A DNA stretch of 64,000 bases. Origin: Candidatus Melainabacteria bacterium 17Bon1m. Its GTDB lineage: Bacteria > Cyanobacteriota > Vampirovibrionia > Obscuribacterales > Obscuribacteraceae. The stretch spans positions 992,001-1,056,000 of the forward strand of contig JAVLKG010000002.1 of the NCBI GenBank assembly GCA_032128875.1, read 5' to 3'. This document shows, in pieces, positions 5,732 through 36,348 of the stretch. The position numbers and the translations under genes are program-made. Below the pieces are notes generated by a model. That model was not told the DNA's origin. It ran no database searches and saw only the letters and a list, made by a program, of their open reading frames with translations. The stretch's first letter is position 1. Every line of letters starts with the position of its first letter.

Positions 5732-5770
5732 AACGAGTTTCCGATTCTAGGGTCTTCCTGGTTCGATTTC

Positions 5771-6382: not shown

Positions 6383-6402
6383 GCCTTGTTGTTTCTACCT
6401 GC

Positions 6403-7494: not shown

Positions 7495-7676
7495 CTTCTT
7501 GTCAACTTCCGCTTTCTCACCGCCGAAACGGTAGTCAATTGCATATAGGACACCTGAAATTGGCAGGTGTGCGGCTCTTAAGAACTGCCTGATCTTAACA
7601 GACGACAGGAAGTTGCCAGTTGGTCCCGTAGTCCTCTTAAAAAGTTTTCGTCAAATCGGTAATGATCCGCACGAAA

Positions 7677-8345: not shown

Positions 8346-8346
8346 A

Positions 8347-9483: not shown

Positions 9484-9928
9484 TTCGAGTATCCTCTTTT
9501 AATCAATTATATTACCGGAAACCCCTGAACTGGGTACGATCCTACAGCTAATCGGGTCGGAAGCTTTACGACGCAATTGTTACCGACCGTGTTCCGCTAG
9601 CCGTTCTGTAGAGCTTTTGCATATGCTCTGGGCGGTAGAAGCGGTTCGGATAGCACCTTCCAGCGCAATCAAGGATATAAGTTGCAAGCGCCTGACTGTT
9701 TCCGTCTCAGAATTTGTTAATTGGCGTAACAACGCGAAAGTATTTCCAGCTGTCCAGCTTTCTATGTAATTTCTTCTTCTGTTTATGAGCTGAATATAAG
9801 CGTTTCTTTAGGGAGTGCACGGCGCGCCTTTGTAGAATTAGAGAGCTTATTTCTCAGGTTTTTGAGAGCTAGACATCAAGTAGACAAGGTCTAGCCGACT
9901 CGAACCGATTCTAACGGACGACACCTAG

Positions 9929-11542
9929 ATGAACGATTTGACCCAGTACGCCATTTGCATCAAGTATCTCCTTCCTGAGATATGTCTTGTTGTGGCGATT
10001 CTTTTGGCTGCACTGTGGAACCTTTTCGTTCCCAAAGCAAAAGAATGGACACCGTTTTTCAGTCTGCTCGGACTGACATCTGCGATGTGGTTCTTGATGA
10101 AGTCATGGTCCAGTACAGCGTTGCCGCTGTTCAATGGACTATTCACCGTCGACCAATTGACGACAAGCTTCGGATTGCTCGCCTGTATGGTCGGTGCCAT
10201 TTGCGTTTTGATGACTGTCGGCTACGAACATCACCTGGGCAGAAACCGCGGAGAGTTCTATGCGATTTTGCTGACAGCTGTTCTTTCCGTCATGCTGCTA
10301 GCCGGCTCGACTGACTTGATTATGCTTTTCGTCAGTCTCGAGACGCTCAGTATCTGCTGCGTTATCTTGGCTGGTTTTTCTAAAACAGACGCGCGCAGCA
10401 GTGAAGCCGCGCTCAAGTATTTACTGTCTACCGCTGCTACTACCGCCACCCTCTTATACGGTCTTTCTTTCTTATATGGCATGACCGGATCGACTAGCTT
10501 TCAGGCTATCCGTGAGCGCCTGGAAATGCCGATGTCTTCCCCAACAGAGATGATGGGAAGTGTTTTTCTCTTGGTGCTACTTTTGAGCGCGGTTGGTTTC
10601 AAACTTTCACTCGTTCCATTCCACATGTGGACACCGGACGTATATGAAGGTGCACCCACACCAGTTACTGCTTTCCTTTCTATCGGTTCAAAAGCCGGTG
10701 GATTTGTGGTGGCATTGCGCTTGCTCGTCGACGTTTTCGGCAAGCAGTCTTCCGACTGGGTAATTGTTGTAAGCGCTCTGGCAATTCTCTCGATGGTCGT
10801 GGGCAACCTGGTTGCGCTCGCGCAGAAATCATTCAAGAGAATGTTGGCTTATTCTTCCATCGCGCATGTCGGCTACATCATGATCGGCATGCTCGCCGTC
10901 AACCATGAAGGGTTGGGGGCAATGATGTATTACGTCGTCGTCTACGGCTTTATGAATCTCGGCGCCTTCGCCGGAGCGATTCTCTTCGCCAACGAAACCG
11001 GCAGCGACAAGATAGATGATTACGCTGGTTTGATTCGCAAACGGCCCTTGCTCGCTTTGGGCATGTCTGTTTGCCTGCTCAATCTGGCTGGACTGCCGAT
11101 TCCTCCGGCTGGTTTTTTCGCCAAGCTCTTCGTCTTCTGGGCAGGCTCTTCCATTCAAACACCGGTCGGTGGCATTCCGCTGGGCGCCTTGCTAGTGGCA
11201 GTTGCTCTTGCAACATCGGTGCCGGCAATCTATTACTACACTCAAGTAGTAATCAAAATGATCGTCGACAAGCCGTCTGCAAAAGTTGAAGCTTTGCCGA
11301 AAGAGAAAGCCTATATCGACAGCCCGCAAGAAGCTCCGGCTCTGGCTCTGGCGATGTGCTTGATTGTGATCGTTGCAACGGGAACCACTGCAGTCGATCC
11401 GGTTATGAAATTCTCGAAAGAAGCTGTCAAACCACTAATTGCTCGTCCATCTACTGTTGTTCCTCCCGTCAGCCTGCTGGAAGACTCATCTCCTTTTGGC
11501 AGAACAGCTGAAATCGCGGGAAATACAGGATTGACACACTAA
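9929..11542 (+). CDS. ndhB: NAD(P)H-quinone oxidoreductase subunit 2 (NdhB/NuoN)
   Basis: EAALKY, FKLSLVPFHMWTPDVYEGAPTP, KRMLAYSSIAHVGY; many TM helices. Confidence 0.93.
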   Translation: MNDLTQYAICIKYLLPEICLVVAILLAALWNLFVPKAKEWTPFFSLLGLTSAMWFLMKSWSSTALPLFNGLFTVDQLTTSFGLLACMVGAICVLMTVGYEHHLGRNRGEFYAILLTAVLSVMLLAGSTDLIMLFVSLETLSICCVILAGFSKTDARSSEAALKYLLSTAATTATLLYGLSFLYGMTGSTSFQAIRERLEMPMSSPTEMMGSVFLLVLLLSAVGFKLSLVPFHMWTPDVYEGAPTPVTAFLSIGSKAGGFVVALRLLVDVFGKQSSDWVIVVSALAILSMVVGNLVALAQKSFKRMLAYSSIAHVGYIMIGMLAVNHEGLGAMMYYVVVYGFMNLGAFAGAILFANETGSDKIDDYAGLIRKRPLLALGMSVCLLNLAGLPIPPAGFFAKLFVFWAGSSIQTPVGGIPLGALLVAVALATSVPAIYYYTQVVIKMIVDKPSAKVEALPKEKAYIDSPQEAPALALAMCLIVIVATGTTAVDPVMKFSKEAVKPLIARPSTVVPPVSLLEDSSPFGRTAEIAGNTGLTH

Positions 11543-11556
11543 AGTGAATCAGTGAG

Positions 11557-14208
11557 ATGAGCCTACACTCGCTCGTCCAACTGAAGAATCAGATTGCCGA
11601 CCCGACTAAACTCAGTCGTCCTCTTCGGTATCTGTTGCTCTTCTTTGCAGTTATTGTTCCTCTTGTAATTCACTATTATCCGTATTTGTTCGGCGGGCGC
11701 TCTTTTGTGTCTTCCGATCATCATCTTTTCTTTGAACCGTTTTGCCGCTTCATGGGAGACGCGTATAGAGAAGGGCGTCTGCCTTTGTGGAACCGCTGGC
11801 TGTATTTTGGAATGCCGCAATTCGCCTTGCCGTCTCCATCATATTTGTATCCACCCACTTTGTTGTATGCGCTGTTTTCGTATAGCCAAGGACTTTCGAT
11901 ACAGCAAATTCTGCATCACAGCGTTGCTGCTATTGGTGGGTGTCTACTTGCTGAAAGCCTTGGTTTGAGCTTTGGCGCATCAGCATGTGCCGGGCTGGCT
12001 TTTGCATTTAGCGGATACATGTTTACTTTGAGCGCTAATTATTCGCTTGTTGCTGGTGTTAGCTGGCTTCCCATGGCATTGTTTGCATCGCGCAGAATAC
12101 GTTTTGCAGAAACGCTCGCGCAGCGATCGCAGTGGATAATTGTCCTTTCAGTCTGTGTTTTCCTGATGATCAGTGCCGGCCGACCTGAGGTTTTTGTGCC
12201 GGTTATGGTGATTGTTCTGGCGCACGCTCTGACGGGTATTGGACGTCATTACTTGTTGAAGTTCAAAACTAGCTGGAAGCGACAAGCGGACATTGAAACG
12301 ATCGATCCGGCAGCACAACTGCATGACGAGAGACCGTTGAAACTTTTCTTTTGCCGTTTGCTTGCCCTGGCGATTGGTGGCTGCCTTTGTATGCCGTTGC
12401 TGTTACCGGCGCTCGAATGGGCTTCTGGTTCGACTCGAGCGAAAGGACTTGATCCTAGTGAAGTAACTATCTGGAGTGCAAATTGGTACAGCTTTCTGAC
12501 AATGATTTTGGCGCAACCGTTTGGCGATTTGCAGACAATCGGTAACGCCTTCTTGCCTGTCGCAGCTGACCGCGCTGCCTACATGCCTTTCCTGCCATCT
12601 GCTTATGTTGGCGCGGCCGTTTTTACTTTAGCAATACTTGGTCTCTTTCATACTCGCTCACCATGGCTGGTGCCTGTTGGTTTGTTGCTGGTGGCAGGAA
12701 CTACATTCTCGCTGGGGCGTTACACGCCAATTTTGCCGTGGTTGATTCATACCTTCCCATCACTGGCTGTTTTTCGCTATCCGGTTAAGCTGCTTATCCT
12801 GCCGATTATGGCGCTGTGTCTGCTTGCCGCTTTTGGGATTCAAGCTGCTAAAGACAATCGCATCGGCTACAAAGCGCTGCAAAAAATGGCGCTATTTTGG
12901 ATTGTGGTGATGCTGGGAGGCATTCTATCTGTCTTTCTAGGAAGGTATTGGCTCACCCTACAATCCGCAAAACTCGGCATCAATTCTGAGATTGCAATTG
13001 CTATTGGCACGGCGGTCTTTCACAGCGGTGCAATTGGTCTGACAATGGTGTCAATTTGCATTTTGCGCTACAAAAATCTCTTAGGCCATTTTGGTTTTAT
13101 TCTCTTTACCGGCTTGCTTCTAACGATGGACTTGTTTGGGACATCTATTCGTTTTCCCGCATTGTCAGCGCCTTCAAGCTTTTACAGTGATAAGCCCATT
13201 GTTGTAAAAATGCTGGAGAAACAAGTTGGCGAGTCCGCGATTTCAAAAACGCGAGTCTTGAATATTTACTACGATCCGCTGGCAGCTCCTGCCTCTACCT
13301 TCCAGGGAGAGCCCAGGGAGCGGACTCTTAAATACTACAGATACTGCCGTGATTTGCTTGTTTGCAATAGCAATATGGACTACGGTGTGCAGCAGGCTTA
13401 CGGATACGAAGGAACATTGTCTGCAAAATACAGGCATCTTGCTCTCAGTATCATCAATGATATAAGAAACGCCAGCGCCGCCGAAGAAAACGAAAAGGAT
13501 GCGAAGGTCGGCAGCGACAGTGTTTTCGATGAGCGCATGCGCAGGTTTGCAGACGCCGCAGGTCTTCAGTTTGTCACCTGTCAGCTTCGACGTGATGGGC
13601 AGAAACAACCGGATCTTTCTTTTGACGATTTCGAGATTGTAGAAGATATCGATTCGAAAAACATTCGACTATACAAAGTGAGACGCCCGAAAGCGAGAGT
13701 TGAACTCACTGAGCATTGGACATGGGTTGACACTACTGAACAAGCATTTCAAATTTTGCAGGTGGAGAAGGCTAAAGATAATGGATTGTCCTTGATGCCG
13801 CTTATTGAGAAACGAAAGGACGAGAACAAGTCATATCCTCTGGGTTTTGTCAGCGAGTGTACACCCAGCAAAGCCACATGTGAAATATTGTGCGACAAGC
13901 CTGAGCATGTCACTGTCTCTGTCAATGTGCCCCGTCCTTGTATGTTGATTTTGCGAGATCAGTTTTATCCTGGATGGAAGGCGCTCCTTGATTCAGTATC
14001 AGTGCCCATCTATCGAGCTAATGGATTTACAAGGGCGGTGTATGTACCGGCTGGTGCTCATGCCATCGAGTTTAATTACAAACCTGATAGCTTGAAATAT
14101 GGCGTGCGTATCGCCCTTGTTGCTCTTGCAGCTTTAGCTGTGCTTGCTTTTTTAGCTTTTGCACCTGGTGTCTGGCGTTTTGTGAAATGGACGGCCGGAC
14201 AAAACTGA
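11557..14208 (+). CDS. YfhO-family membrane protein (GT-C-like glycosyltransferase)
   Basis: PLWNRW...GMP N-terminal motif, multiple TMs, C-terminal DQFYPGWKA...ANGFTRAVYVPAGAHAIEFNY. Confidence 0.85.
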   Translation: MSLHSLVQLKNQIADPTKLSRPLRYLLLFFAVIVPLVIHYYPYLFGGRSFVSSDHHLFFEPFCRFMGDAYREGRLPLWNRWLYFGMPQFALPSPSYLYPPTLLYALFSYSQGLSIQQILHHSVAAIGGCLLAESLGLSFGASACAGLAFAFSGYMFTLSANYSLVAGVSWLPMALFASRRIRFAETLAQRSQWIIVLSVCVFLMISAGRPEVFVPVMVIVLAHALTGIGRHYLLKFKTSWKRQADIETIDPAAQLHDERPLKLFFCRLLALAIGGCLCMPLLLPALEWASGSTRAKGLDPSEVTIWSANWYSFLTMILAQPFGDLQTIGNAFLPVAADRAAYMPFLPSAYVGAAVFTLAILGLFHTRSPWLVPVGLLLVAGTTFSLGRYTPILPWLIHTFPSLAVFRYPVKLLILPIMALCLLAAFGIQAAKDNRIGYKALQKMALFWIVVMLGGILSVFLGRYWLTLQSAKLGINSEIAIAIGTAVFHSGAIGLTMVSICILRYKNLLGHFGFILFTGLLLTMDLFGTSIRFPALSAPSSFYSDKPIVVKMLEKQVGESAISKTRVLNIYYDPLAAPASTFQGEPRERTLKYYRYCRDLLVCNSNMDYGVQQAYGYEGTLSAKYRHLALSIINDIRNASAAEENEKDAKVGSDSVFDERMRRFADAAGLQFVTCQLRRDGQKQPDLSFDDFEIVEDIDSKNIRLYKVRRPKARVELTEHWTWVDTTEQAFQILQVEKAKDNGLSLMPLIEKRKDENKSYPLGFVSECTPSKATCEILCDKPEHVTVSVNVPRPCMLILRDQFYPGWKALLDSVSVPIYRANGFTRAVYVPAGAHAIEFNYKPDSLKYGVRIALVALAALAVLAFLAFAPGVWRFVKWTAGQN

Positions 14209-14254
14209 GTTGCAATGATGCTAGGATCATAGGTACCGTTGATGAGAGTTTTTT

Positions 14255-14328
14255 GCCCTCTTAGTTCAGCTGGATAGAACACCTCCGTCCTAAGGAGGGT
14301 GTCGGGGGTTCGAATCCCTCAGAGGGTG
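14255..14328 (+). tRNA. tRNA-Arg (anticodon CCT), CCA not encoded
   Basis: cloverleaf: acceptor GCCCTCT/AGAGGGT, D arm GTTC/GAAC, anticodon arm CCTCC-GTCCTAA-GGAGG, T arm GGGGG-TTCGAAT-CCCTC. Confidence 0.93.
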
Positions 14329-14338
14329 CTTACTACGC

Positions 14339-14380
14339 AAAAGGGAAAGGCGATCCCCATGCCTTTCCCTTTTACTTTTT
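14339..14380 (+). terminator. intrinsic terminator after the tRNA (possibly bidirectional)
   Basis: AAAAGGGAAAGGC...GCCTTTCCCTTTT perfect stem followed by a T-rich tail. Confidence 0.8.
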
Positions 14381-14571
14381 GGAACCGATTTTTCAATCGA
14401 TTCATATAACTGTCAGTTGATTTGCTCTATAGGCAAGTCCTTTCTAGTTAGGGTGTGTTCGATTTGAAAGAAAGCGTAAGCTGTCCCTCCTATTTCTAGT
14501 CAGTTGTAATAGAACTTCGGTTTTACGTCACAGCCGTTCTTGCCTGGTGTGTAGAAGCAAGATGGCTACTA

Positions 14572-14593
14572 CTTCTTCTTCTTCTTCTTCTTC
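14572..14593. repeat. (CTT)7 / (GAA)7 trinucleotide microsatellite
   Basis: cttcttcttcttcttcttcttc read directly. Confidence 0.85.
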
Positions 14594-14605
14594 GGAATAA
14601 ACTTT

Positions 14606-15151
14606 CTATGCTGTTTTGGCGCGCTTTCTGCCCCCTTTTACTGGTGGCGTATCGGCGAAAACGCCTTTCACTCTTTCGACGATTTCTTCGTCTTCCTCTT
14701 CATCTCCAGCGTCTTCATCAACTTCGTCGAAGTCTTCATCTTCGATATCAGCTTCTTTGTATTTGACACTGCGTACAGATTCACCTTTGGCGAATGTTCT
14801 ACTCATGTCTATTTCACCTCCTGAAAAATCTGTCTGAGAACGTCTAGGAAAGGCGATTTGATCTGCATTTACCACAGGTGTAACTCTCGCTTGACCGTTT
14901 TTGTCGGTCCAACGATCAAGCGTGAGTCTTCCTGTCGCGGTCACCTGCTGCCCTTTATCCAGATATTGTCCGGCGAGTTCAGCAAGGCGGCCCCACGCTA
15001 CAACGTTGTAGTAGTCCGCAGATTCACTTTCGCTCTTTTTAGCGTGATTAACGGCTACGACAAAAGTAGTTTTTAGCTTTCCACTGGCAAGTTGTATCTG
15101 CTCGGGAGCCTTCACGAGATTCCCCACTATTGAAATATTGGCAAGACCCAT
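14606..15151 (-). CDS. ssb: single-stranded DNA-binding protein with an atypical C-terminal tail
   Basis: OB fold: IVGNL, VAVN, VVAWGRLAE, YLDKGQQVTATGRL, WTDKNGQ; start placed at the ATG after a GGAGG RBS. Confidence 0.85.
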   Translation of the reverse strand: MGLANISIVGNLVKAPEQIQLASGKLKTTFVVAVNHAKKSESESADYYNVVAWGRLAELAGQYLDKGQQVTATGRLTLDRWTDKNGQARVTPVVNADQIAFPRRSQTDFSGGEIDMSRTFAKGESVRSVKYKEADIEDEDFDEVDEDAGDEEEDEEIVERVKGVFADTPPVKGGRKRAKTA

Positions 15152-15324
15152 AACTCTACCTCCGTCAGGCTTGCTGCCTGCATAAGGGGTACGACTCAAG
15201 TGAAGTGGGGAGATGATTAAAAGTTAGCATGCCATACATGCGTATGTCAACTCTTGACTTTTTCTTGATAGAAAACGCCGTCTCCTGGGCTTTGCGGCTC
15301 GATTGATAGCTGTATGGTGGTGGT

Positions 15325-16539
15325 ATGAATCTATTGCTGTATCGGTATCGTGAGGCACGGCCATGTGTGCAAGTGCCGGAGTTAAAACTCGTGATTCAGA
15401 GCTCCGCTGACTGGTTTCAACGGTATAGATTTTGTCAACCGCTCGGACAGGGCGGCATGGGCGTGATTTATCTTGCCGAAGATAAGGCTCAGGGCAATAT
15501 TCAATGCGTCGTAAAACAGCTGATAAGTAAACCTAGCAATCCAGATGAACAATTCGAAGCAGAGCGACTATTCAAAAGAGAAGTAGAAATACTTAGGCAG
15601 CTCGATCACTCGGGTATCGTTCGTTTCTCCGATTTCCATGTTACTGATGACGGCAAATACTTCCTGGTAATGGATTATGTTCCAGGTAAAAACCTGGATA
15701 GCATCGTGCAGAATTATGGTCCATTCGGCTCCGAGGCAACCGTAGAAATTGGTATTCAGTGCTGCGAGGTTCTCGAATATCTGCATGAAAGAGATTACCC
15801 AATCATATATAGGGACCTGAAGCCGAGCAACTTGATGCTCACTCCAGAGGGGCAGATCGTATTTATAGATTTCGGCATCGCGCGCATGTTCATGCCGAAG
15901 CAAGCAGCAACACGAGTCGTTACAGCAGGCTACTCGCCGCCTGAACAATATTTCGGCCGACCAGAAACGCGAAGTGACTTGTATGCACTTGGCGCTACTC
16001 TTGGACATTTATGCACGGGTGTTCGTCCAAAACCGCTCACCGTCAGCGCTCCTGGTATTACCCATCCAGCTGTAATTCCAGAACTGGACGATCTAATTAG
16101 AAGGATGACTGCTCACAATCCGGAAGATAGACCGTTCAGTGCACGCGAAGTTCGATATGAGCTGTACAAGATCTATCACAGCATGCATCCCGATTTCGAA
16201 ATTCCAGAGGAAGCCTTGGTGCCAGTGCAAGCAGCTGTAGCGCCAAAGAAAGAGGGGCCACCAACTAATCCAAATTTGCGTTCCGGTTTGCACAGTGATT
16301 CGAGCAAGCGTCCAGCGAATTGGCTCGAGCGAGAACAGCCAAAAGAAGATGACATTCAGAAGGTAACGAGAAAAGACGCAGAAAGAGTGAATCCTGCCGA
16401 TGTGCAGCACGCACGCCGGACGAGTGAGAGATTGACTCGTCCTGATGCCAGAGACTCTAACTACAGGCGAAGAAACTCGCAATCGCAGCCAGCACCACAA
16501 ACCTTCTGGGATAAGCTCAGGCAATTTTTTAGCAAATAA
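15325..16539 (+). CDS. Hanks-type Ser/Thr protein kinase (soluble)
   Basis: LGQGGMGVIY, VVK, YRDLKPSN, DFG, GYSPPEQ, SDLYALG. Confidence 0.93.
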   Translation: MNLLLYRYREARPCVQVPELKLVIQSSADWFQRYRFCQPLGQGGMGVIYLAEDKAQGNIQCVVKQLISKPSNPDEQFEAERLFKREVEILRQLDHSGIVRFSDFHVTDDGKYFLVMDYVPGKNLDSIVQNYGPFGSEATVEIGIQCCEVLEYLHERDYPIIYRDLKPSNLMLTPEGQIVFIDFGIARMFMPKQAATRVVTAGYSPPEQYFGRPETRSDLYALGATLGHLCTGVRPKPLTVSAPGITHPAVIPELDDLIRRMTAHNPEDRPFSAREVRYELYKIYHSMHPDFEIPEEALVPVQAAVAPKKEGPPTNPNLRSGLHSDSSKRPANWLEREQPKEDDIQKVTRKDAERVNPADVQHARRTSERLTRPDARDSNYRRRNSQSQPAPQTFWDKLRQFFSK

Positions 16540-16678
16540 ACGTATTTTCGGATATTCTTGTGCCTCACCTGGAGCAAGTAAATGCAGAAGTTTAACCGTT
16601 ATCGGTCAAACTTCCAGACGTCACCGGCTGGATCTGGCTGGCATCTTGGCATTCTAGTAAATGTGCTGGCTGAGCGTA

Positions 16679-16708
16679 TTGACAATCATGCTCTGGCGGG
16701 CGTACGAT
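16679..16708 (+). promoter_or_regulatory. sigma70-type promoter of the vWA/PurA-like operon
   Basis: TTGACA (16679)-18 nt-TACGAT (16703). Confidence 0.65.
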
Positions 16709-16734
16709 AGTAAGCGTAAGAAACACAATAACTA
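16708..16734. promoter_or_regulatory. imperfect palindrome with a GT-N7-AC core, resembling an NrtR operator
   Basis: tagTAAGCGT-aagaaac-ACAATAActa immediately downstream of the -10 element. Confidence 0.55.
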
Positions 16735-16871
16735 GGTGAATCCAGAGACGTGGCCTGTACGGGATAATTTGTTGGGTTCGCAACTATCAACCTACGCTTT
16801 GCAGCTGGAAGTTTCCGCTGCGCATGGATTTGCTCAACGAAATCGAAAGAGAACGGCATCACAGGTGGTGC
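16735..16871 (+). ncRNA. candidate structured leader RNA of unknown family
   Basis: closing stem GGTGAATCCA/TGGATTTGCT, inner stems CGTGG/CTACG, GTTG/CAAC, GCAGC/GCTGC, then GCATCA/TGGTGC; folded by eye. Confidence 0.3.
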
Positions 16872-16909
16872 TGCGATCTAATGCGAGCAATTTCAAAGGA
16901 GAATGTGTC

Positions 16910-17812
16910 ATGGGTTATGCAAGATGGAATCATGATGACTGGGACGACTATGTAAGAGGCAATATTCGAAAGTCTATAGATGAGATCTTCAGCAATCGTC
17001 TTGATCCAGAGTTAGACCCTAAGAATGTCAGCTTCAGGGAGTCGCGTGATTCGGCAGAAAATCCTCTTTCGACTCCTATCATTGTTGCTGTTGACCAGAC
17101 AGGCTCGATGGGTTTTCTCGCTGAAAGTCTGATAAGAGAAGGGTTGGGAATTCTTGTCGAATCTATTTACGAGAGAAAGCCGGTTACTGATCCGCACGTC
17201 ATGTGTATGGCTCTGGGAGATGCTTGGTGCGATCGGGCTCCACTGCAGGTAACGCAGTTCGAAGCCGATATCAGAATTGCAGAGCAGCTCTCAAAGTTTT
17301 ACATCGAAGCAAACGGTGGCGGTAACAACTTCGAGAGCTATAACCTGCCATGGTACTTTGCTGCGACGCGCACCAGATGTGATGCTTGGTTGAGACGCCA
17401 AAGGAAAGGTTATCTGTTTACTGTCGGTGACGAACCACCGCCCCCCGAGCTGAAGGTCGAGCATGTCAAAACATTCCTGGGCGGTGGACTGCAGCGCGAC
17501 ACAAGCTCAAAAGAGCTGTTAAGGCTAACCTCACAGACTTGGCAGGTCATTCATATCATTACCGAAGAGGGTTCGTATTATCGCTCGCGACCTAAGCAAA
17601 CCAGCGACGCTTGGGCGAGCTTGCTCGGTAAAAGGGCGATTTCATTGAGTGATCATCGAAATCTTCCGGAGCTAATTGTTTCGATCATGCAGGTCCTGCA
17701 AGGAGAAAATCCGCAAGAGGTGGCTTACAGCTGGTCGGGAAAAACGGCTTCAGTGCTCATGAATGCGCTGAAAGGGCTGGCCGAACCATACGTTCCCTTC
17801 ATCAGCGCGTAG
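16910..17812 (+). CDS. vWA-like (MIDAS) domain protein
   Basis: PIIVAVDQTGSMG (DxTxS), GGGNNFESY, LFTVGDE; ATG preceded by an AAGGAG RBS. Confidence 0.8.
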   Translation: MGYARWNHDDWDDYVRGNIRKSIDEIFSNRLDPELDPKNVSFRESRDSAENPLSTPIIVAVDQTGSMGFLAESLIREGLGILVESIYERKPVTDPHVMCMALGDAWCDRAPLQVTQFEADIRIAEQLSKFYIEANGGGNNFESYNLPWYFAATRTRCDAWLRRQRKGYLFTVGDEPPPPELKVEHVKTFLGGGLQRDTSSKELLRLTSQTWQVIHIITEEGSYYRSRPKQTSDAWASLLGKRAISLSDHRNLPELIVSIMQVLQGENPQEVAYSWSGKTASVLMNALKGLAEPYVPFISA

Positions 17813-17838
17813 CTGTCAGCTATAAGGAGGACACCATT

Positions 17839-19035
17839 ATGAGAACTGGAATTGCTGTGATTGGAGCCAACTATGGCGACGAAGGGAAGGGATTGGTTAC
17901 TGATTTCATCACCAATCAACTGGCAGCAGAATGCTCCGTCGTTAGATTCAACGGCGGAGCGCAGGCTGGGCACACTGTCGTGACGCCGGATGGAAGGAGG
18001 CATGTTTTCAGCCATATTGGCGCTGGTTCTTTTAGTGGTTGTCCCACCTACTTATCGCAGTTCTTCGTCGTCAATCCGCGACTATTCGTAAAGGAATTGG
18101 CCGATCTCACTTGTATAGGAGTACAACCACGGGTCTTGATTGATCCAAGGTGCTTTGTCACAACTCCAATCGATGTACTTGTAAATCAGGCACTTGAGCG
18201 GAAGCGTGGAACCAAACGTCATGGAAGTTGTGGCGTCGGAATCAATGAAACTGTGACCCGTTGTTTACGGTCGACTGAATTTGCAACCCAGGCCCAGGAG
18301 CTTTTAAATCCAAGTTTGTTTGAGCGCAAACTACTGCATGTTTTTCGAAACTGGCTTCCTCAGAGGCTTGTGGAGCTAAATATCGATCTGGAAGAATCAA
18401 TAATTCAAGAGGCGTTCAAACAATCTGAGTCGATAGCTTCAAGATTTATCTGTGAATGCGAATCTCTATTGAACGCATCGCAGATCACTTTTCGAATTCC
18501 GGATACTCGCTTTGTTGTGTTCGAAGGCGCTCAGGGCTTGATGCTTGATGAAAACAGGCTGGATCAATTTCCTCACGTCACTCGCTCGAAGACCGGTCTT
18601 GAGAACATAGGTTTCTTGTTCCAAAAGTATGGTCTTGAAGAAATGCAAGTCAATTACGTCTCTCGAACATACCTGACCAAGCATGGAGCCGGTCCTTTGC
18701 CAGGCGAGTGTTCATGGCGGTTTCCGGACGCGACGAACGTTGCTAACCCATACCAGGGAACTCTTCGCTACGCGCCGCTGAATATTGATAATCTGAACTA
18801 TTCAATTGATTTGGATTTGAAACGAGGAAAGTATCTGTTTCCAAATCTCTCGGCTGGCATTGCCTTCACCTGTACAGATCAGCTTGAAATGCCGGATATG
18901 CGAAGGCTACCTCTGGCGGTAAACATGGTTAGCCGCGGTCCGAAAAGAGGTGATATCGAAGTTCTAGACGGCGCGAATTATTTAAAGAGTGCTTTAAAAC
19001 CAATTTCACGAGCAAGAGCAGTCTTACGCGCATAG
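17839..19035 (+). CDS. divergent adenylosuccinate synthetase-like (PurA-fold) protein
   Basis: GANYGDEGKG, GGAQAGHT, EGAQG, FPHVTRS, YLTKHGAGP; lacks the GATTGRxRR aspartate loop; AAGGAGG RBS. Confidence 0.85.
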   Translation: MRTGIAVIGANYGDEGKGLVTDFITNQLAAECSVVRFNGGAQAGHTVVTPDGRRHVFSHIGAGSFSGCPTYLSQFFVVNPRLFVKELADLTCIGVQPRVLIDPRCFVTTPIDVLVNQALERKRGTKRHGSCGVGINETVTRCLRSTEFATQAQELLNPSLFERKLLHVFRNWLPQRLVELNIDLEESIIQEAFKQSESIASRFICECESLLNASQITFRIPDTRFVVFEGAQGLMLDENRLDQFPHVTRSKTGLENIGFLFQKYGLEEMQVNYVSRTYLTKHGAGPLPGECSWRFPDATNVANPYQGTLRYAPLNIDNLNYSIDLDLKRGKYLFPNLSAGIAFTCTDQLEMPDMRRLPLAVNMVSRGPKRGDIEVLDGANYLKSALKPISRARAVLRA

Positions 19036-26719: not shown

Positions 26720-28255
26720 TTAATTGCTAGTCCCAGAGCTGGGTTTTACTTTCCAGTCGAATTTGTAGCGGATTTGAATATAGTGTGGCGAGCCTGCTGG
26801 CAATTTTGGCAAAGGCGATGCTGCCTTGAGTGCTGCCAAGGCTGAATCGTCTATAGCCTGATCGCCAGAACTCTCGGTAATGGTGGGGTCGATGATTGTG
26901 CCATTGCGTTTGATTGTGAAAACAGACACGACATGCTTTTCATTCATGCCTTTGGGTGGTGCCCACTTAGATTGAATCAGCTGCTTCATCTCTTTCATGT
27001 ACGGACCCATATCGACGTTCTGAGGCGGAGTATCGTCATTTTCGTCGTCGTCATCACCAGCTTCTTTTGCTGCGGGTTTAGCGGGTGCTGAAATCGGCGC
27101 CCCTTTTGCTGGTGTCGCTTTGGCTGCTGGTGTGGTTTTTGCTGCACCTGCCGGCCTGGCATCCGTGGCGGTTGCTCCCGGTGCTACCGTCAGGTCAGCG
27201 CTCGGTAAATTAGCTGCAATGAGTGTTTTCGACCTGGTCATTCTTCCTGGCGCACCATACTTGATGTCGGGCCTTTGCATTGCCAGTTGATCTAATGAAT
27301 GCCCGATATGCAATGATTTCGGTGGGATTGAACTTTTGAGTCGCACGCCCAGAGGCACATCGACAATGTCCGGACTGTCTGTTGCTGCCAAGAAAAGTGG
27401 GGTTTGGTCTTTCCCTTGAACTTGTTCTGCATCTCTTGTCACGCTTTGCGATACATACGCGGCTAATGTGGCAAGTGGCTGTGTGCCTGCATCGGCGGAC
27501 ATGCCTTCAACCAGATATTGAGTGAAGCTGGAAACCGGTGCGCTCGATGACTGTTGCGATTGCTGCATACCTTTGGTCGCCGACAAGACTGTGACGCCGC
27601 TATTTTCTGCGATTTTCTCAATGTTGAGTCCACCTTCTGCAGTGTTAGCACCGGGAGCAGGAGGCACAGCTGGTGATAGATCCAGGAATGCAACCACGCG
27701 CTTGGATTGAAGGCGTCTTTTAACATTGGCCAGTAAGCTGCTGAGTGGGATGCCTTCTACGCCTGCCTTGTCCAACTTGCTGTCGTTAGCTAGAAGCATC
27801 ACGCCCCTGCCTGCATCACCACGAACAAAGCGAGTGCAAATGTAGATGACGACGAGATCTTCAGGCAGCGCTTTTTTGCATAGCCACTCATCAGTCAGAA
27901 TATTTTCGATCGCATCTTTAGACGCCGCAGCATTGGCTATGGCCACCACATGGTCCGGCGCAAACCGACCGACTCCCACACTTTTGAAGACTTCAGTCAG
28001 CGCAGTAGTGTTTTTATACGCGAAAGGCAACGGCGTGATTGTCGGATCTTGATACCGCCCGACGCCAATGAAAACGCCCCACTTGTCTCTTATTTCAAGG
28101 GCCGCAGCCGGCTTTTTACCTTGAGAGGAGGCGCTGACTTTCGACATTGCCGCGTTTTTCATGCGTACAAGCGGGTTTTCAGCCAGAGCCGGTATGCTGC
28201 AAGGCGATTGCAGTAGACAGAGAACGGCTGAAAGTGTGAATGCGCTTTTTAGCAT
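26720..28255 (-). CDS. secreted caspase-like (C14) domain, catalytically degenerate, fused to a TonB C-terminal-like domain
   Basis: signal peptide; DKWGVFIGVGRYQD...PEDLVVIY...AFLD caspase fold; C-terminal IQSKWAPP...VFTIKRNG...SSGDQAIDDSALAAL...PLPKLP. Confidence 0.75.
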   Translation of the reverse strand: MLKSAFTLSAVLCLLQSPCSIPALAENPLVRMKNAAMSKVSASSQGKKPAAALEIRDKWGVFIGVGRYQDPTITPLPFAYKNTTALTEVFKSVGVGRFAPDHVVAIANAAASKDAIENILTDEWLCKKALPEDLVVIYICTRFVRGDAGRGVMLLANDSKLDKAGVEGIPLSSLLANVKRRLQSKRVVAFLDLSPAVPPAPGANTAEGGLNIEKIAENSGVTVLSATKGMQQSQQSSSAPVSSFTQYLVEGMSADAGTQPLATLAAYVSQSVTRDAEQVQGKDQTPLFLAATDSPDIVDVPLGVRLKSSIPPKSLHIGHSLDQLAMQRPDIKYGAPGRMTRSKTLIAANLPSADLTVAPGATATDARPAGAAKTTPAAKATPAKGAPISAPAKPAAKEAGDDDDENDDTPPQNVDMGPYMKEMKQLIQSKWAPPKGMNEKHVVSVFTIKRNGTIIDPTITESSGDQAIDDSALAALKAASPLPKLPAGSPHYIQIRYKFDWKVKPSSGTSN

Positions 28256-30675
28256 GAAATTTCCTCTACAAACTCCTTCACTTCCTTTGAGGACGGCAGG
28301 CGGCTTTGAGCTATTTTCGGATTGACCGACTGCAATTTGGCAGATGCCTCCACGAGCCTTTCAGCGTCGGAGTTGCCAGATATCCTGTCTAATTGCTCCC
28401 GGCTGGCTGAGCGCGTTTTGCTATGTACACTGTTCTTAGACATTGTTTTGGCGCTTACCGACTCAACTCTCTCGACGATTTCCGGCTCGAGTTCATAGGT
28501 GTCGTAAATCAATCGATCGATAGACCTGTCGATGAAGAGTATCAGATCATCGGTTTTTTGTGAGCATCCATTTACTTCGAGCTTCCCAAAAGAGCCGAAA
28601 GGGATCAATTCCGCAATGGATCTCGTCAGGTAAGAAATGAGCCGTGCGCGTTCCTCAGTCAACATTTGCAAGGGCATCGATTCAACTGTGTCGATGTCCA
28701 CTTGCGCTAAAGCTCGACCGGCCTCGCGGGTTCGCAAACGATAGAGATGTTTCCATAAAGTCGAGTTGATCAGTGCACACAGGCTGATAAGGTCCAGTGA
28801 TGGGTCTTTGCTCAGGGCTGGGGAAAAACTATGCACGTTGTTCAAATGGTACAAACCGCTCTCATCGTAGGCGCAGACGAGTGAATCACCCGTTTGCCGA
28901 ACGAGAATTTTTGGATTTTGAATGATTTGCTCGTTAAATCCACCTTTGAAAAGTAGCTCGGGATTTACGTTTATCCAATCCCCATCCCAAACGACCATAA
29001 ACCGGCGCACTTGTGCTCCTGACGTGATTCCCCTGCGCCAGGTTGTGTTTAGCGGTTGTCTTGCCGTGATTGAATTTCTTCCGCAAAGCGAGCGTATGCC
29101 CGTGTAGCCAGACAAAACACTCTTCAGTCGTGGCATTTGATCTGTTAGCTTCAATAACTTGTGATCGTGTTTGTTGAAAATCAGCCTGAACGAGTCATTT
29201 GATTTGTCGTGCAATTCATTGATCGCTAAAGAATACTTGGTCGCATTCTCGAATTCGTCGAGGGCACCGATAGCCTGACCACTGTCATCGATGTATGTGG
29301 ACAAGTCGACTGCATAGTCTTCTGTGCATTTCTCTTTTTCGTAGTGAGCGACACACCACCTACCCACTACCGCTTCGGGAATTATGCGGGCGGGAAACTC
29401 GCTCAGTGATCGAATGCGGCAATTGGAAAGGAGCAACAAACGCAACTTACGATAATAACTGCCGGTCAGAAATCCGTCCGGAACAAGAAGTACGATACTG
29501 CCTCCGGTGGCAGTATATCTGATAGCAATGTCCTGAAAAATGGAGTGATATCGAACCTTATATTCTGCGGCCTCGAAATAGCGCCGCTTCAAAAATTTCG
29601 CAGAAGTATCCAGCAGAACCTTTTGATTTCTAGCGCCGAAGCTCACATAAGGCGGGTTTGTAATCACTAGATCAAATACATTTTTGTTGTCTGTTTGCAA
29701 TCCTGCTGCATCGAGGATCGAATCAGAAACGACAATATGTTTTCTCAACTTTTGTCCGAGTTGCTTATATAAATGTAGGCAACCAAAGCCGTCCTCTAAA
29801 CCGTCATATATAGAGGTGCAAATTTTTTCGATGTGGCGGGCGGCGCAGAGCGTGACGCTGAGCCTTGCCAGGGCTGCCGCTCTGGGATCTAACTCTTGAC
29901 CATATAAAGAATCGCACGCAAGTGCATATATGTTTTCAGCGCCGGCCGATTCCGCCAATTCAGAATCTATATATTGAATGAAGCCGCAAAGAAAGTTGCC
30001 CGTTCCGCACGAAGGATCCAGGACCTTGAAGGTTTCATCGACGTTGCCATCATTGGTGAGCTGCCGCTTAGCCAAGTGAGACGCTGATTTAGCCCGTTTA
30101 AGGCGTTTGATTAAATCAGTTGAGTAACGACGAAAGGCTATATCAAAGCAGTACTTCACTACATATGGTGGCGTATAAAACTGACCGACTATGCGTCTTC
30201 TTTCTTTAGCCTGAATATCAAAATCTACCTTCGCGCTGTTTTCCAAAGATATATCCAGGCTTTGATTGGCAATCAGCTCGAAGAGAGTTCCAAGCAGCTC
30301 AATACCAGGAGCCAGTCTTGATGAAAGCAGATTCCGAGAGATACTGACTATTTCCTCTTCCAACTCCTTTGAAATCGGGGTGGCAAATGGATATTCATTC
30401 GTCCTAACCATGTGCGATAGCAGAGCAGAAATTTTTTGCTGATCTGTTTTTGACATAGCTGATCTGCATATATGAGAACCACAAGTGGTGGCAAGCCAGA
30501 TGGCCAAAGCGCGCAATGCGTATTCATCGCAAAGCTCGGAAAGCTCCGCACTGTCAGGTATATAGGTCCGCTCACCTCTTGTATCTAATGCGTAACGGAC
30601 TGTTGCACGACCTACTGCAAGACGCAGTTGCATAAGAGCTTTTTTGCCAGAGTTTGGCGCTTTCGGCTGTTTCAT
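28249..30675 (-). CDS. N6-adenine DNA methyltransferase (TaqI/Eco57I-like) with a TaqI-C-type specificity domain
   Basis: GQFYTPPYVV, VLDPSCGTGNFL, NPPY, PKILVRQTG, ALINS. Confidence 0.85.
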   Translation of the reverse strand: MKQPKAPNSGKKALMQLRLAVGRATVRYALDTRGERTYIPDSAELSELCDEYALRALAIWLATTCGSHICRSAMSKTDQQKISALLSHMVRTNEYPFATPISKELEEEIVSISRNLLSSRLAPGIELLGTLFELIANQSLDISLENSAKVDFDIQAKERRRIVGQFYTPPYVVKYCFDIAFRRYSTDLIKRLKRAKSASHLAKRQLTNDGNVDETFKVLDPSCGTGNFLCGFIQYIDSELAESAGAENIYALACDSLYGQELDPRAAALARLSVTLCAARHIEKICTSIYDGLEDGFGCLHLYKQLGQKLRKHIVVSDSILDAAGLQTDNKNVFDLVITNPPYVSFGARNQKVLLDTSAKFLKRRYFEAAEYKVRYHSIFQDIAIRYTATGGSIVLLVPDGFLTGSYYRKLRLLLLSNCRIRSLSEFPARIIPEAVVGRWCVAHYEKEKCTEDYAVDLSTYIDDSGQAIGALDEFENATKYSLAINELHDKSNDSFRLIFNKHDHKLLKLTDQMPRLKSVLSGYTGIRSLCGRNSITARQPLNTTWRRGITSGAQVRRFMVVWDGDWINVNPELLFKGGFNEQIIQNPKILVRQTGDSLVCAYDESGLYHLNNVHSFSPALSKDPSLDLISLCALINSTLWKHLYRLRTREAGRALAQVDIDTVESMPLQMLTEERARLISYLTRSIAELIPFGSFGKLEVNGCSQKTDDLILFIDRSIDRLIYDTYELEPEIVERVESVSAKTMSKNSVHSKTRSASREQLDRISGNSDAERLVEASAKLQSVNPKIAQSRLPSSKEVKEFVEEISC

Positions 30676-33448: not shown

Positions 33449-33485
33449 TTCAAGTTTCTCTCTTTGTTTTTCGCAAGAAACTTGA

Positions 33486-34664
33486 TTAGCCTCTGATTAG
33501 TCGCTTTAGCAGAGCGCTTAACCGATGTCTCGATTGGTCGCTCTTCGCTTGTTCTCGTTTGACGTCTTCTATACGTTTTTCCAAAACGCGCACCCACGAA
33601 TCAGTAATTCCTTTGTCTTTCGCAGCTTTAACCAGACTGCCGAAACCGCCAATTTGGTGGGCTGATGGAATGTTTAACACAGAAAGTTTTGCGTCAGACA
33701 ATTCAGGAATTGCTTTGGATTGCGGAATGCCGTGAAGCCTCGTGAGCAGAATATCCATGACACACTTCGCGCAGACTCCGCAGTTTTCATCGCGTCTTTC
33801 AGCGCTGAAGCAAATTCTCAAATTGTCATAGCCGTCCGCCCATTCGGTGAGTTGCTTTATTTTTTCAACGCGTTTTACGCTTGCTCCGTCGTGAACAATA
33901 CCAAAACTGCAACTCGATAAAAGATGATCTGTTATCGGGTTCGACCCCCAGGGTAAAACCAGTCCGCCGTATGCGCATCCGCTCGCCACAAGCCCTTCAG
34001 AAAAGTTGTTTTTGAAGAACATCAGTGTTGATGCCAGTCCTGCGATATGCGTGTCGTCCCACTCGATATTCATCGCCTGAAGATTCGTAGACATTGTGAT
34101 CAAATTGATGCCTACTTTGTCGAGGGTCGCTTCGATGGGTTTAATTGCTCTCTCAAAAGCATCAGGTGCAGCCAGAGGAATATCAAACCCGTGCACGAAG
34201 AGGCAGCTTTTTATTTCGCGCTTCCAGGCTTTTGGGCAGGAGCCGAGCGTGTGTCGGAAAATCGTGTGTGTGCTGTCGACGCCACCGCTGAACGCTGCAA
34301 TTGCATTCGAACGTTCAATCGCAACGACTTCTTCAGACTCGCAGTCCGGGGTGATTTCGATCTGTTTGTATCTTTCCGGTCGCCAGACCTGCCAAACAGA
34401 CTGGAATTCACTGAGATTGCGCAGCAATGAAGGTGAAAGGTTGCCGTGGAAGCGGCAATCAAAGCCCGCTTTCATCAAAAGAAAAACGTTTGCTACGGCA
34501 AAAGAGTCTGCAGTGCAAACGGCTAAATGTGCGTATTTGCCAGGAATTTTGAACCAAAGGGTTTGACGTTCTTTATGCGGAGTTTCAATAACAGCGCTGA
34601 AGGTCGTATCTTCATTGAGACAAACCGGTTCTTCAATCCAAATGTGAGTCGTGCTGCTGGACAT
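33486..34664 (-). CDS. uncharacterised PP-loop ATPase (adenine nucleotide alpha-hydrolase, QueC-like Zn motif)
   Basis: AFSGGVDS PP-loop; C-terminal C-x8-CGVCAKC. Confidence 0.65.
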   Translation of the reverse strand: MSSSTTHIWIEEPVCLNEDTTFSAVIETPHKERQTLWFKIPGKYAHLAVCTADSFAVANVFLLMKAGFDCRFHGNLSPSLLRNLSEFQSVWQVWRPERYKQIEITPDCESEEVVAIERSNAIAAFSGGVDSTHTIFRHTLGSCPKAWKREIKSCLFVHGFDIPLAAPDAFERAIKPIEATLDKVGINLITMSTNLQAMNIEWDDTHIAGLASTLMFFKNNFSEGLVASGCAYGGLVLPWGSNPITDHLLSSCSFGIVHDGASVKRVEKIKQLTEWADGYDNLRICFSAERRDENCGVCAKCVMDILLTRLHGIPQSKAIPELSDAKLSVLNIPSAHQIGGFGSLVKAAKDKGITDSWVRVLEKRIEDVKREQAKSDQSRHRLSALLKRLIRG

Positions 34665-34902
34665 CAGTGCTTCTGTCTATAAGTTCAGTTCGCCAAAGAT
34701 AAACCAAGTTCGATTTAAGTTACGGTTAACCAAAAATAACCCCCAAAATTGCAAGATTTATCCTCAATAGATCCCTCATGAAGTTAAGATTACCGGAGAG
34801 TCACCGAACGGTAACTTTCATATTGCTTGCGTGTAACTTTCGGCTTGTTCACGGGCATTGCAAGTAAGCAAATTGGTAGATATTAGAAACTGGAGCACAA
34901 TA

Positions 34903-35061
34903 ATGACGAAGAACGAAGTACAAAGTTTTTCCGTTGATGTTAAGGAATCCGAGGCAGTTACACAATTAGAGAAAGTCAAAAACCCAGTCCTGAAGAAGAT
35001 CATCCAACAGGTGCTGGTAGAAGATGAAGCAGGAAGTTCTTTCGGCGAAGGTGGCGCTTAG
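34903..35061 (+). CDS. putative RiPP precursor peptide (52 aa), FxsA-like leader, core ...SSFGEGGA
   Basis: GGAG RBS 7 nt before the ATG; amphipathic leader LEKVKNPVLKKIIQQVL; immediately upstream of the rSAM/SPASM gene. Confidence 0.75.
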   Translation: MTKNEVQSFSVDVKESEAVTQLEKVKNPVLKKIIQQVLVEDEAGSSFGEGGA

Positions 35062-35124
35062 TTTTATCACTAAGGATGGCTGCCAGGTTGTTCGCTTCTT
35101 TTCCGTTGCTCAATCGGAGTTTCA

Positions 35125-36348
35125 ATGAAGTCAGTAATTGAAAACAAGAGAAGTGTGGAAATCAAGAGGCGGCCGATTACCTCTTACGTCCTGAAGATAG
35201 CGAGTCGATGCAATTTGAATTGCAAGTATTGCTATGTTTACAACCTGACGGACAAGACGTATCTGAATCAGCCTGCTGTGATGTCTGATGAAGTGGTGAA
35301 TTCCACTATTCAAAAGGCGCGCAATCATTGCATATCAAATAATCTCACCACTGTGGAATTTATCTTCCATGGTGGTGAGCCTCTTTTGGTTGGCCAAGAA
35401 TTCCTGCGTAGATTCACAGAACAAGCAAAGAAAGTTTTGCTTCCTGAAATTCAGCCTCATTTTTCGATACAAACAAATGGCACTTTACTAACCACTGAAT
35501 GGCTTCATCTTCTGAACGAGCTGAATATCAGCTATGGCATTAGTTTGGACGGCACGCCCGAAGTCAACGATGCCAACCGTGTCGATCATCAAGGCAAAGG
35601 TTCTTACCATCGAGTCAAGGCAGCGCTGGATTTGATTCACTCAGATCCGCAGTTTGAGCCGCGAATGAACGGCATCCTTTCTGTCATAAATATCCATAGC
35701 GATCCGATCGAGATTTACAGACACTTTCGCAGCCTGGGCTTGCGCTCGATTGATCTGCGCTTGCCTGATGCAACACACGATATTCCGCCGCCTGGTGTTG
35801 ACGTAAACGGCACTAATACGCCCTATGCGGACTGGCTGATACCAATCTTCGACGAGTGGTTTGCGCAATCAGAAGCCGAATTCAATGTTCGATTATTCCA
35901 ATATATTATCGGGCTAATTTTCGGATCTCAAAAGTCAACAGTAGATGTCGGTGCAATCAGCTCAAACTTTGCAGTCATCGAAACAGATGGCGGCATCGAA
36001 CCAAGCGGCGCACTGAAAGCCTGTTATGAAGGAATTACCAAAGTCGGCTTGAACGTACTCACCAACGAAGTCGATGAGATCTTCGATATTCCTGTGGTGG
36101 CACTATTTTCTGCTGCGGAAAGTGAATTGCCGGATACCTGCAAGCAGTGCCCCATAGTCAGCGTTTGCGGCGGCGGAAAGCCTCCGCACCGATACAGTGC
36201 AGACAATGGCTTCAACAACCCGTCAGTGTATTGCAGAGACTTGATGAAATTGATTGTGCATATTCAAGAAAAGGTTGTTGCCGAATTGCCTCAAGAACTG
36301 AGACAGCAATTGACTTTGGCCCCGCTGCGAGAATTAGTTGCCGACTGA
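35125..36348 (+). CDS. radical SAM/SPASM peptide maturase, FxsB-like (cyclophane-forming family)
   Basis: VLKIASRCNLNCKYCYVY, FHGGEPLL, QTNG, ISLDG, IETDG, CKQCPIVSVCGGG..PHRY...GFNNPSVYCRDL. Confidence 0.9.
   Translation: MKSVIENKRSVEIKRRPITSYVLKIASRCNLNCKYCYVYNLTDKTYLNQPAVMSDEVVNSTIQKARNHCISNNLTTVEFIFHGGEPLLVGQEFLRRFTEQAKKVLLPEIQPHFSIQTNGTLLTTEWLHLLNELNISYGISLDGTPEVNDANRVDHQGKGSYHRVKAALDLIHSDPQFEPRMNGILSVINIHSDPIEIYRHFRSLGLRSIDLRLPDATHDIPPPGVDVNGTNTPYADWLIPIFDEWFAQSEAEFNVRLFQYIIGLIFGSQKSTVDVGAISSNFAVIETDGGIEPSGALKACYEGITKVGLNVLTNEVDEIFDIPVVALFSAAESELPDTCKQCPIVSVCGGGKPPHRYSADNGFNNPSVYCRDLMKLIVHIQEKVVAELPQELRQQLTLAPLRELVAD

Follow-up and report, generated by a model that had tools for sequence, protein, structure and literature searches.

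We describe a three-gene cassette at positions 33457..36339 of a 64,000-nt window of an Obscuribacterales (Vampirovibrionia) genome, and read it, with a probability of roughly 0.6, as a self-contained locus for a peptide made by the ribosome and modified after translation (RiPP). Positions are coordinates in this window unless a locus (L) or genome (G) label is given. The cassette encodes a 52-aa precursor peptide with an F-G-E core, a radical S-adenosylmethionine (rSAM)/SPASM peptide maturase and a QueC-family (QatC-like) pyrophosphate-loop (PP-loop) ATPase. The putative triceptide-like RiPP with its F-G-E core came through every test that we could compute, its chemistry being proposed by analogy with relatives, and the QueC-like gene is the more novel part of the cassette. 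The original prediction had placed a 52-aa open reading frame (ORF) with a ribosome-binding site 63 nt upstream of the rSAM gene, which is exactly what is found there. It had also called the locus minimal; this does not stand, as the QueC-like gene, which it overlooked, is a constant third member. Its statement that no protease or exporter is encoded alongside holds within the window.

The limits of the cassette are set by comparison with three genomes of the same genus that have no rSAM gene (G011, G002 and G005). All three keep the order methyltransferase-rsmI-PilZ-uppP on one side and membrane protein-kinase-mqnA-TP on the other, and in these cassette-less genomes uppP abuts the membrane-protein gene (8 bp apart in L161). 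Given that the flanks are kept in order, the cassette is a single presence/absence unit of exactly three genes. The sequence AGTT flanks the insert on both sides, which leaves its limits 4 bp of play. The rSAM gene's final two codons and its stop codon (36340..36348) lie outside the indel, and because the same sequence is found in the cassette-less genomes, the insert uses flanking sequence for its end.

At all nine genome loci where the corresponding flank is available, including a paralogous locus (L014 in genome G010) and both genomes of genus g189, the QueC-like gene adjoins the rSAM gene, and it does so on two metagenome contigs as well. A tree of 25 family members places all 11 QueC-like proteins that are linked to an rSAM gene in one clade (support 100/98), in which g189 branches first, then L014, then the orthologues, an order that matches the rSAM identities. 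A QueC-like gene within 3.5 kb was found at 0 of 80 other FxsB-family loci, an outgroup taken from the contig scan of the rSAM alignment and made up mostly of distant FxsB-family loci (35-48% identity). The QueC-like gene belongs to the cassette and co-diversifies with the rSAM gene.

The precursor ORF runs from an ATG at 34903 to a TAG stop at 35059-35061, with GGAG 7 nt before the ATG, and is nested in a longer TTG-started frame from 34858. The peptide matches no NCBIfam model. Compared with three orthologues, the gene has 7-16 silent codon differences and 6-7 that alter the residue, and some of the silent ones fall inside the core itself (G44, S45, S46 and G50). Eight residues are invariant in all 11 aligned single-core peptides: F9, S10, P28, G44, S45, F47, G48 and E49. 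The leader combines F9-S10 with an amphipathic stretch, V25-x-[NH]27-P28-x-L-K31-x-I-I-x-Q-V-L38-x-E40, in which V25, H27, K31, L38 and E40 are each conserved in 90% or more of the 11 sequences; by eye, its architecture resembles that of FxsA peptides beside true FxsB genes. A profile built from 13 precursor copies and searched against 1.84 billion cluster representatives (E <= 0.001) matched 19 proteins, 15 of which are short peptides of 52-81 aa. F-G-E is kept in 14 of these 15, followed by a tail of 2-10 residues of variable sequence. The other four matches are long repeat proteins, which we set aside as chance matches to the amphipathic leader (two were inspected).

The short ORF expected beside homologues of the enzyme was kept at every related locus with that flank: a small peptide gene, in one to three copies, adjoins the rSAM gene at 9/9 genome loci, and one is also present on the metagenome contigs L108-L111. 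Upstream of the rSAM orthologues there are one to three tandem precursor copies. At the paralogous locus L014 (rSAM 57% identical), a 163-aa precursor lies downstream of the enzyme and carries eight tandem motifs, seven FGE and one FGQ, while the positions flanking them, including -1 and -2, vary. In genus g189 (L168; rSAM 56% identical), a downstream 57-aa peptide keeps the leader and has the core YDE-FAD-FPE. The conservation of F-G-E that the original prediction had proposed to look for is thus borne out, and because the motif is invariant in the single-core peptides, repeated in L014 and represented by YDE-FAD-FPE in g189, aromatic-X-Glu/Asp is the conserved unit of the clade. The closest outgroup examined, L113 (rSAM 51% identical), has basic third residues (FIK, HVK and HSR), and the Bacteroidota relatives of the enzyme have other cores again. 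Judged from sequence, an aromatic-X-acidic triplet that is repeated in multi-core peptides is a signature of triceptide precursors.

Four of the Bacteroidota loci (L029, L030, L047 and L072, at about 3040-3470) encode FxsB/YhhB-like enzymes that are 45-47% identical, with two tandem small ORFs upstream. The core of one small ORF reads GGDKEYKPIYED (or GGDKDFTP); the other has GGWKE in two loci; these may be further aromatic-X-acidic motifs. In G010, a 332-aa, extremely acidic Glu/Ser/Lys repeat protein is encoded beside the multi-core precursor (L014 435..1433(+)).

The rSAM enzyme has the cluster motif C28-x3-C32-x2-C35 and C-terminal cysteines at 300, 339, 342, 348 and 370. The FxsB-family signature strings LKIASRCNLNCKYCYVY and CKQCPIVSVCGGGKPPHRYSADNGFNNPSVYCRDL that the original prediction had quoted from it are present as given. 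Among profile hidden Markov models (HMMs) it scores highest with FxsB (TIGR04269; 361.5 bits, E 4.6e-108, against a curated NCBIfam cut-off of 370) and YhhB (NF041707; 342.2 bits, E 3.2e-102, cut-off 445), in both cases with alignments that span the whole profile. XyeB follows with 190.3 bits (cut-off 450), and the anaerobic sulfatase maturase model TIGR03942 with 178.3 bits, half of its cut-off of 349.45. Given the far higher FxsB and YhhB scores, the enzyme belongs with the cyclophane synthases, as proposed from the start, and not with the sulfatase maturases. Its relatives score similarly with the FxsB model (L014 359.7 bits, L168 353.6 bits); as controls, FxsB genes beside genuine FxSxx peptides score 462.3 and 583.5 bits. 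At E <= 1e-60, the enzyme occurs in nine of 107 genomes of the order, namely the window genome, six of the 12 others of its genus and both g189 genomes, and in four of 401 genomes sampled across the phylum. Near-identical proteins bear names that assign the organism to Candidatus Obscuribacterales, a sister group of cyanobacteria that is non-photosynthetic.

These comparisons also bear on the notion that the precursor ORF is a chance frame and that the rSAM enzyme is either an orphan or a maturase of the sulfatase type. An ORF so short and without a family match would suit that notion, and the comparative data refute it: the ORF is conserved, has paralogues, shows silent substitutions in its core and shares a family-wide motif, and the sulfatase model reaches half its cut-off. 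We give it next to no credence.

A single active-site residue is reported to tune the preference for the third position (HtkB D214, HaaB H204; PMC11499958), and for this reason we looked for clade-specific charges. Position 212 is Arg in 7/7 FGE-type enzymes and Leu or Ile in all 13 others, including g189. Arg212 is a candidate residue for selecting Glu; as a concrete candidate, it could be useful for rSAM engineering.

What defines a triceptide is an aromatic-to-C-beta link within an aromatic-X-X motif (PMC11499958). In the parts of the literature available to us, a 2024 review (PMC11002830) and later papers, the characterized pairs are Phe-Ser (MscB, FxsB family), Trp/Phe-Asn, Trp-Arg, Trp-Asp (OscB), Tyr-Asp (YxdB), His-Ala, Tyr/His-Arg (YhhB), His-Lys (HtkB) and the motifs YSK, HAS and FTK (MicB). 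The MscB/FxsB-family link runs from Phe-C4 to Ser-C-beta and that of OscB from Trp-C7 to Asn/Asp, and an acidic third residue has precedents in the Tyr-C3 to Asp-C-beta link of YxdB and the Trp-C7 to Asp-C-beta link of OscB (PMC11002830). Glu as third residue, or Gly second with Glu third, was not found among the characterized triceptide cross-links covered there, and FGE may sit among the ~3,900 precursors of the 2022 landscape. To that extent the original description of the Phe-Glu pairing as uncharacterized stands, yet the pairing is less exotic than it implied: because Asp at the third position is already characterized, Phe-to-Glu would be new as a pair but not in principle.

In the mechanism that we propose, the leader, the amphipathic part of the 52-aa peptide, would be bound by the rSAM/SPASM enzyme, which would abstract a hydrogen from the Glu49 side chain, most likely at C-beta. 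The Glu49 carbon would then be joined to the Phe47 ring, giving a strained F-G-E cyclophane and a loss of 2 Da. We propose this reaction because the nearest characterized relatives, MscB/FxsB, YhhB, YxdB and OscB, form three-residue cyclophanes; by that analogy, which supplies both the cross-link and its atoms, a Phe47-to-Glu49 three-residue cyclophane is the probable product. If so, Glu would be added to the residues that triceptide-type enzymes staple to an aromatic ring.

The third protein of the cassette carries a pyrophosphate loop (S125-G-G-V-D-S130) and a zinc-type motif (C284-x9-C294-x2-C297-x2-C300) whose four cysteines are invariant in 40 homologues; the motifs of QueC are defined as an SGGxDS loop and C(x)8-9CxxCxxC (PMC13329287 section 8). 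The protein also has an N-terminal domain, at about residues 1-110, and a helical extension at its C-terminus (about 323-390). Searches of Pfam, NCBIfam and PADLOC (E up to 10) and a profile search against PDB sequences returned only sub-threshold PP-loop or Cys-motif fragments, among them a match to PF06508 (12.2 bits, E 0.13) that covers the C-terminal Cys motif only and does not reach the gathering score of 22. The family has at least 1,556 homologues, with no names among the 120 listed. The AlphaFold2 model is of high confidence (pLDDT 92.5, pTM 0.89). The only Foldseek matches at E <= 0.001 were to QatC (9y02_B/9y01_B), over the whole length, with E 1.6e-6 and TM 0.44-0.46. With VIA-align, residues 117-314 matched QueC (3bl5_A; Z 12.5, root-mean-square deviation 3.2, 174 aligned) and Cap9 (9nto_B; Z 12.2), the next best structure scoring 9.6. 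As modelled, the fold is QueC/Cap9/QatC-like, with a PP-loop and a four-Cys zinc motif.

QueC converts a carboxylate to an amide and then a nitrile with ATP (PMC13279940; PMC13329287 section 8). Cap9 applies this chemistry to link a carboxylate to the N-terminus of a protein, the deazaguanylation of type IV CBASS, and QatC binds a protein partner, its reaction being unsolved (PMC13279940). In the 93%-complete window genome, neither a full-length QueC (best partial match 27.7 bits) nor a PTPS/QueD was found, and this makes 7-carboxy-7-deazaguanine an unlikely substrate. That genome also encodes several distant PP-loop paralogues, for example two in tandem at C5:234946-236698.

The likeness to QatC raises the question of an anti-phage or conflict module, in which a QatC-like enzyme would modify a small protein partner with the rSAM enzyme as effector or co-modifier. 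QatC of QatABCD is the best whole-length structural match, and the cassette is inserted variably between genes that are themselves conserved. PADLOC, however, gave no match, the neighbourhood has no qatA, qatB or qatD, and the precursors do not have an MG[GT]S N-terminus; moreover, the rSAM enzyme has the full length of a peptide maturase and adjoins a substrate made up of leader and core. We consider such a module very improbable.

We lean slightly, by analogy, towards the QueC-like enzyme acting on the peptide. A narrower suggestion, that its target would be a peptide carboxylate, is tentative. In this proposal, the ATP pyrophosphatase would adenylate a peptide carboxylate, with the Glu49 side chain as best candidate and the C-terminus as second, and the activated carboxylate would then react with a nitrogen nucleophile to form an amide, or possibly a nitrile or lactam, before or after cyclophane formation. 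Glu49 is favored because the peptides invariably offer its carboxylate while the C-terminus varies. The fullest form of the idea, which we regard as speculative and on balance unlikely, is that of a QueC-fold peptide tailor that would adenylate the Glu carboxylate of a Phe-Gly-Glu cyclophane and turn it into an amide or a nitrile, or into a new amide link, with its paralogues beside azole-peptide genes acting likewise. It would be the first QueC-family RiPP maturase and a portable 'carboxylate editor' shared between RiPP classes; our literature search found no paper tying a QueC-family enzyme to a RiPP. A complex prediction for the QueC-like protein and the precursor scored 0.01 and, with no control predictions, says nothing either way.

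The azole-peptide genes lie elsewhere in the window genome (L027, C3:367000-386999), as two TOMM-type cassettes 12 kb apart, each with ThiF-like, YcaO and nitroreductase genes. The precursors of one are three tandem Cys-rich peptides ending in ...PP.PDF.F, and the other has a CxC-repeat precursor; near the C-termini of these peptides there is a conserved Asp. Each cassette is flanked by a QueC-like paralogue (~40% identical to that of the window) and by GT2 genes.

In g189 (L168), the cassette is followed by a gene for a 309-aa family-less protein (3523..4452(+)) with an HxD...H pattern by eye, and then by 4456..5568(+) and 5593..6396(-); a pyruvyl transferase and a GT2 gene follow the cassette. 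The 309-aa protein was compared with a 313-aa neighbor in L027 and the two are unrelated. In the other g189 genome (L167 1..8223), two AcrB-type pumps and an outer-membrane factor are encoded just upstream of the cassette.

Outside these cassettes, QueC-like homologues were found in nine of 400 other sampled genomes, the cyanobacterial ones being 37-43% identical. In eight cyanobacterial loci (L148-L155, in G288, G216, G042, G121, G342, G085, G127 and G133), a polysaccharide pyruvyl transferase gene occurs in 6/8 and a GT2 gene in 6/8, with AsnB-like genes, sulfotransferases and often HtpG also near the QueC-like gene. Such neighbors suggest that cyanobacterial glycan synthesis includes a carboxylate-modifying step as yet unstudied. 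Searching these glycan loci and those of the azole peptides with a leader profile turned up no related peptide.

Several observations weigh against our reading of the cassette, the first of them on the side of the peptide and the rSAM enzyme. No product, mass shift or transcript has been observed. At 353.6-361.5 bits against a cut-off of 370, the rSAM clade falls below the FxsB threshold and is therefore a separate subfamily, the chemistry of which could differ. In the single-core peptides, though not in the repeat precursor, Ser45 matches F-G-E in its invariance, and we found no basic residue common to the whole acidic-motif clade. Within the same RiPP cassette, the rSAM enzyme might thus carry out another reaction: a Glu C-gamma bond, an ether, a C-N link, a link to Ser45, an epimerization or an oxidation. 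PqqE, which bonds Glu C-gamma to Tyr, would be a precedent for the first of these. A different reaction would accord with scores below the YhhB and XyeB cut-offs as well, with the invariance of Gly44 alongside Ser45 in the 11 single-core peptides and with the C-C, C-O and C-N links made by related enzymes (PMC11499958); a Trp-C5 to Arg-C-gamma link is reported for WprB. Against it, the two best models both describe three-residue cyclophane formers and align over the full profile, F-G-E/Q stays constant in the L014 repeats where positions -1 and -2 vary, and the g189 core consists purely of aromatic-X-acidic triplets. We rate another reaction as a minor alternative to the Phe47-to-Glu49 cyclophane.

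The remaining adverse observations concern the QueC-like protein. The precursors have starts such as MTKN, MAKD and MDKQ, unlike the substrates of Cap9 and QatC, which have an N-terminal Gly motif. The wider QueC-like family is not peptide-linked, its eight cyanobacterial loci lying among glycan genes, and given these and the g189 neighbors, the substrate could be a sugar or a small molecule. The QueC-like enzyme would then leave the peptide untouched, making or modifying a sugar or small-molecule carboxylate, as the cyanobacterial homologues probably do in their glycan clusters, and would travel with the rSAM gene for another purpose, such as providing a group for later attachment, self-protection or regulation. 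The pyruvyl transferases, GT2s, AsnB-like genes and sulfotransferases beside the cyanobacterial homologues would fit, as would the pyruvyl transferase and GT2 that follow the g189 cassette, the GT2 genes that flank the paralogues in the azole loci of the window genome, and the WbpG-type sugar amidotransferases that are members of the QueC superfamily (PMC13329287 section 8). Yet the 2.9-kb indel of the window's genus holds no glycan gene, while a QueC-like gene that co-diversifies with the rSAM gene is present in every cassette, and its paralogues adjoin two more peptide-maturation cassettes in the window genome. An enzyme that ignores the peptide is, in our judgement, a doubtful alternative to one that acts on it.

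Table 1. Features of the cassette in window coordinates, and genes of the azole-peptide cassettes in the coordinates of locus L027.
Feature	Position	Strand	Remarks
Whole cassette	33457..36339	none	2,883 bp present here and missing from three same-genus genomes (alignment and sequence)
QueC-family (QatC-like) PP-loop ATPase gene, 392 aa	33486..34664	-	
Intergenic region, 238 bp	34665..34902	none	divergent, presumed to hold promoters; separates the QueC-like and precursor genes
Precursor peptide gene, 52 aa	34903..35061	+	GGAG ribosome-binding site at 34892-34895
Leader, residues 1-43	34903..35031	+	alignment of 11 peptides
Core, residues 44-52, GSSFGEGGA	35032..35058	+	F47-G48-E49 codons at 35041-35049
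rSAM/SPASM peptide maturase gene, 407 aa, FxsB/YhhB-like	35125..36348	+	GGAG at 35116-35119
L027 azole-peptide cassette genes	4887..6113, 6214..9456, 9569..10270, 13720..13974, 14042..17275, 17280..18491	+, -, -, +, +, -	

The precursor and rSAM genes are separated by 63 nt (35062-35124), and the 3' end of the rSAM gene overlaps a convergent gene for a 180-aa membrane protein by 15 nt (36334..36348). Folding of the 63-nt spacer and a terminator scan gave nothing above shuffled sequences (z 0.04). Promoter-like sites in the intergenic sequence of the cassette were also not above shuffles (three found, 3.7 expected), and a single weak one lies on the + strand at 34877-34904. Three libraries recorded as RNA-Seq gave no evidence of transcription across 31800-38300: the region assembled as single contigs of 18-34 kb, identical to the DNA, and the libraries, which share a sample with the probable source, behave like DNA. 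The habitats in which these genomes occur include water systems and aquifers. A gene at 28249..30675(-), 3 kb away from the cassette, encodes an 808-aa protein with a motif of the NPPY type (by eye, a DNA methyltransferase); it is conserved in genomes without the cassette and hence is not a member of it.

With one peptide, one rSAM enzyme and one ATPase in 2.9 kb, the cassette is a small test set, from a lineage of non-photosynthetic cyanobacterial relatives with almost no described peptide chemistry. Protein modification by the QueC family is a recent finding (Cap9) and the QatC reaction is unsolved, and a 52-residue candidate substrate beside a relative offers an easy route to learning such reactions.

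With Cap9 and QatC, the third protein shares the QueC core, the SGGxDS loop and the four-Cys motif, and it is likewise encoded beside a candidate polypeptide substrate. The model has extra N- and C-terminal parts, which may correspond to the extensions of QatC, the whole-length Foldseek TM being only 0.44. The third protein differs from both in sequence (~10-17% identity, no HMM match) and in its neighbors: in place of QatA/B/D or a CD-NTase, it has an rSAM gene with a leader peptide, uppP and a membrane protein. In proposed function, it would resemble the asparagine-synthetase-like RiPP enzymes, which adenylate an Asp or Glu side chain or a C-terminus and pass it to nitrogen. PP-loop enzymes described as acting on RiPP peptide carboxylates in one preprint are lasso cyclases, TsrC, ScdTA and PesC, with TsrC and ScdTA carrying out C-terminal amidation and PesC forming a C-terminal nitrile (bioRxiv 10.64898/2026.03.11.711119). 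Unlike the QueC-like protein, which has no glutaminase domain, the asparagine-synthetase-like enzymes belong to the PF00733 branch.

Turning to the rSAM enzyme, we note that it is much nearer to FxsB and YhhB than to the other models matched, and in this it is unlike PqqE. The PqqE/PqqA pair of PQQ biosynthesis provides a parallel: in a short peptide from an exporter-less cluster, an rSAM/SPASM enzyme forms a carbon-carbon bond between a Glu side chain and the aromatic ring of Tyr. It differs in its E-x-x-x-Y spacing, its C-gamma link and its requirement for PqqD. An Fxs-type system in the strict sense is not what we find: the rSAM enzyme is under the TIGR04269 cut-off, and the precursor ends in FGEGGA, not F-x-S-x-x, whereas FQSSI, FESSL or FNSSI ends occur in 8/80 outgroup loci (16 matched the pattern, 8 of them FxsA-like by eye). 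The cassette differs from YhhB systems in having no His/Tyr-x-Arg in its core and in its score of 342.2 bits against the cut-off of 445. From the characterized triceptides it is set apart by Glu as third residue with an invariant Gly as second, by an enzyme clade under every curated cut-off, by its Obscuribacterales lineage and by a constant QueC-like companion that is absent from the 80 outgroup loci. Like the triceptide systems, it has a short precursor with an amphipathic leader and a conserved aromatic-X-X triplet beside an rSAM/SPASM enzyme homologous over its full length, the triplet is repeated in multi-core relatives, and its acidic third residue has a precedent in Asp. Judged by these defining tests, the cassette falls outside the Fxs, YhhB and Qat families, and it would work like a triceptide system.

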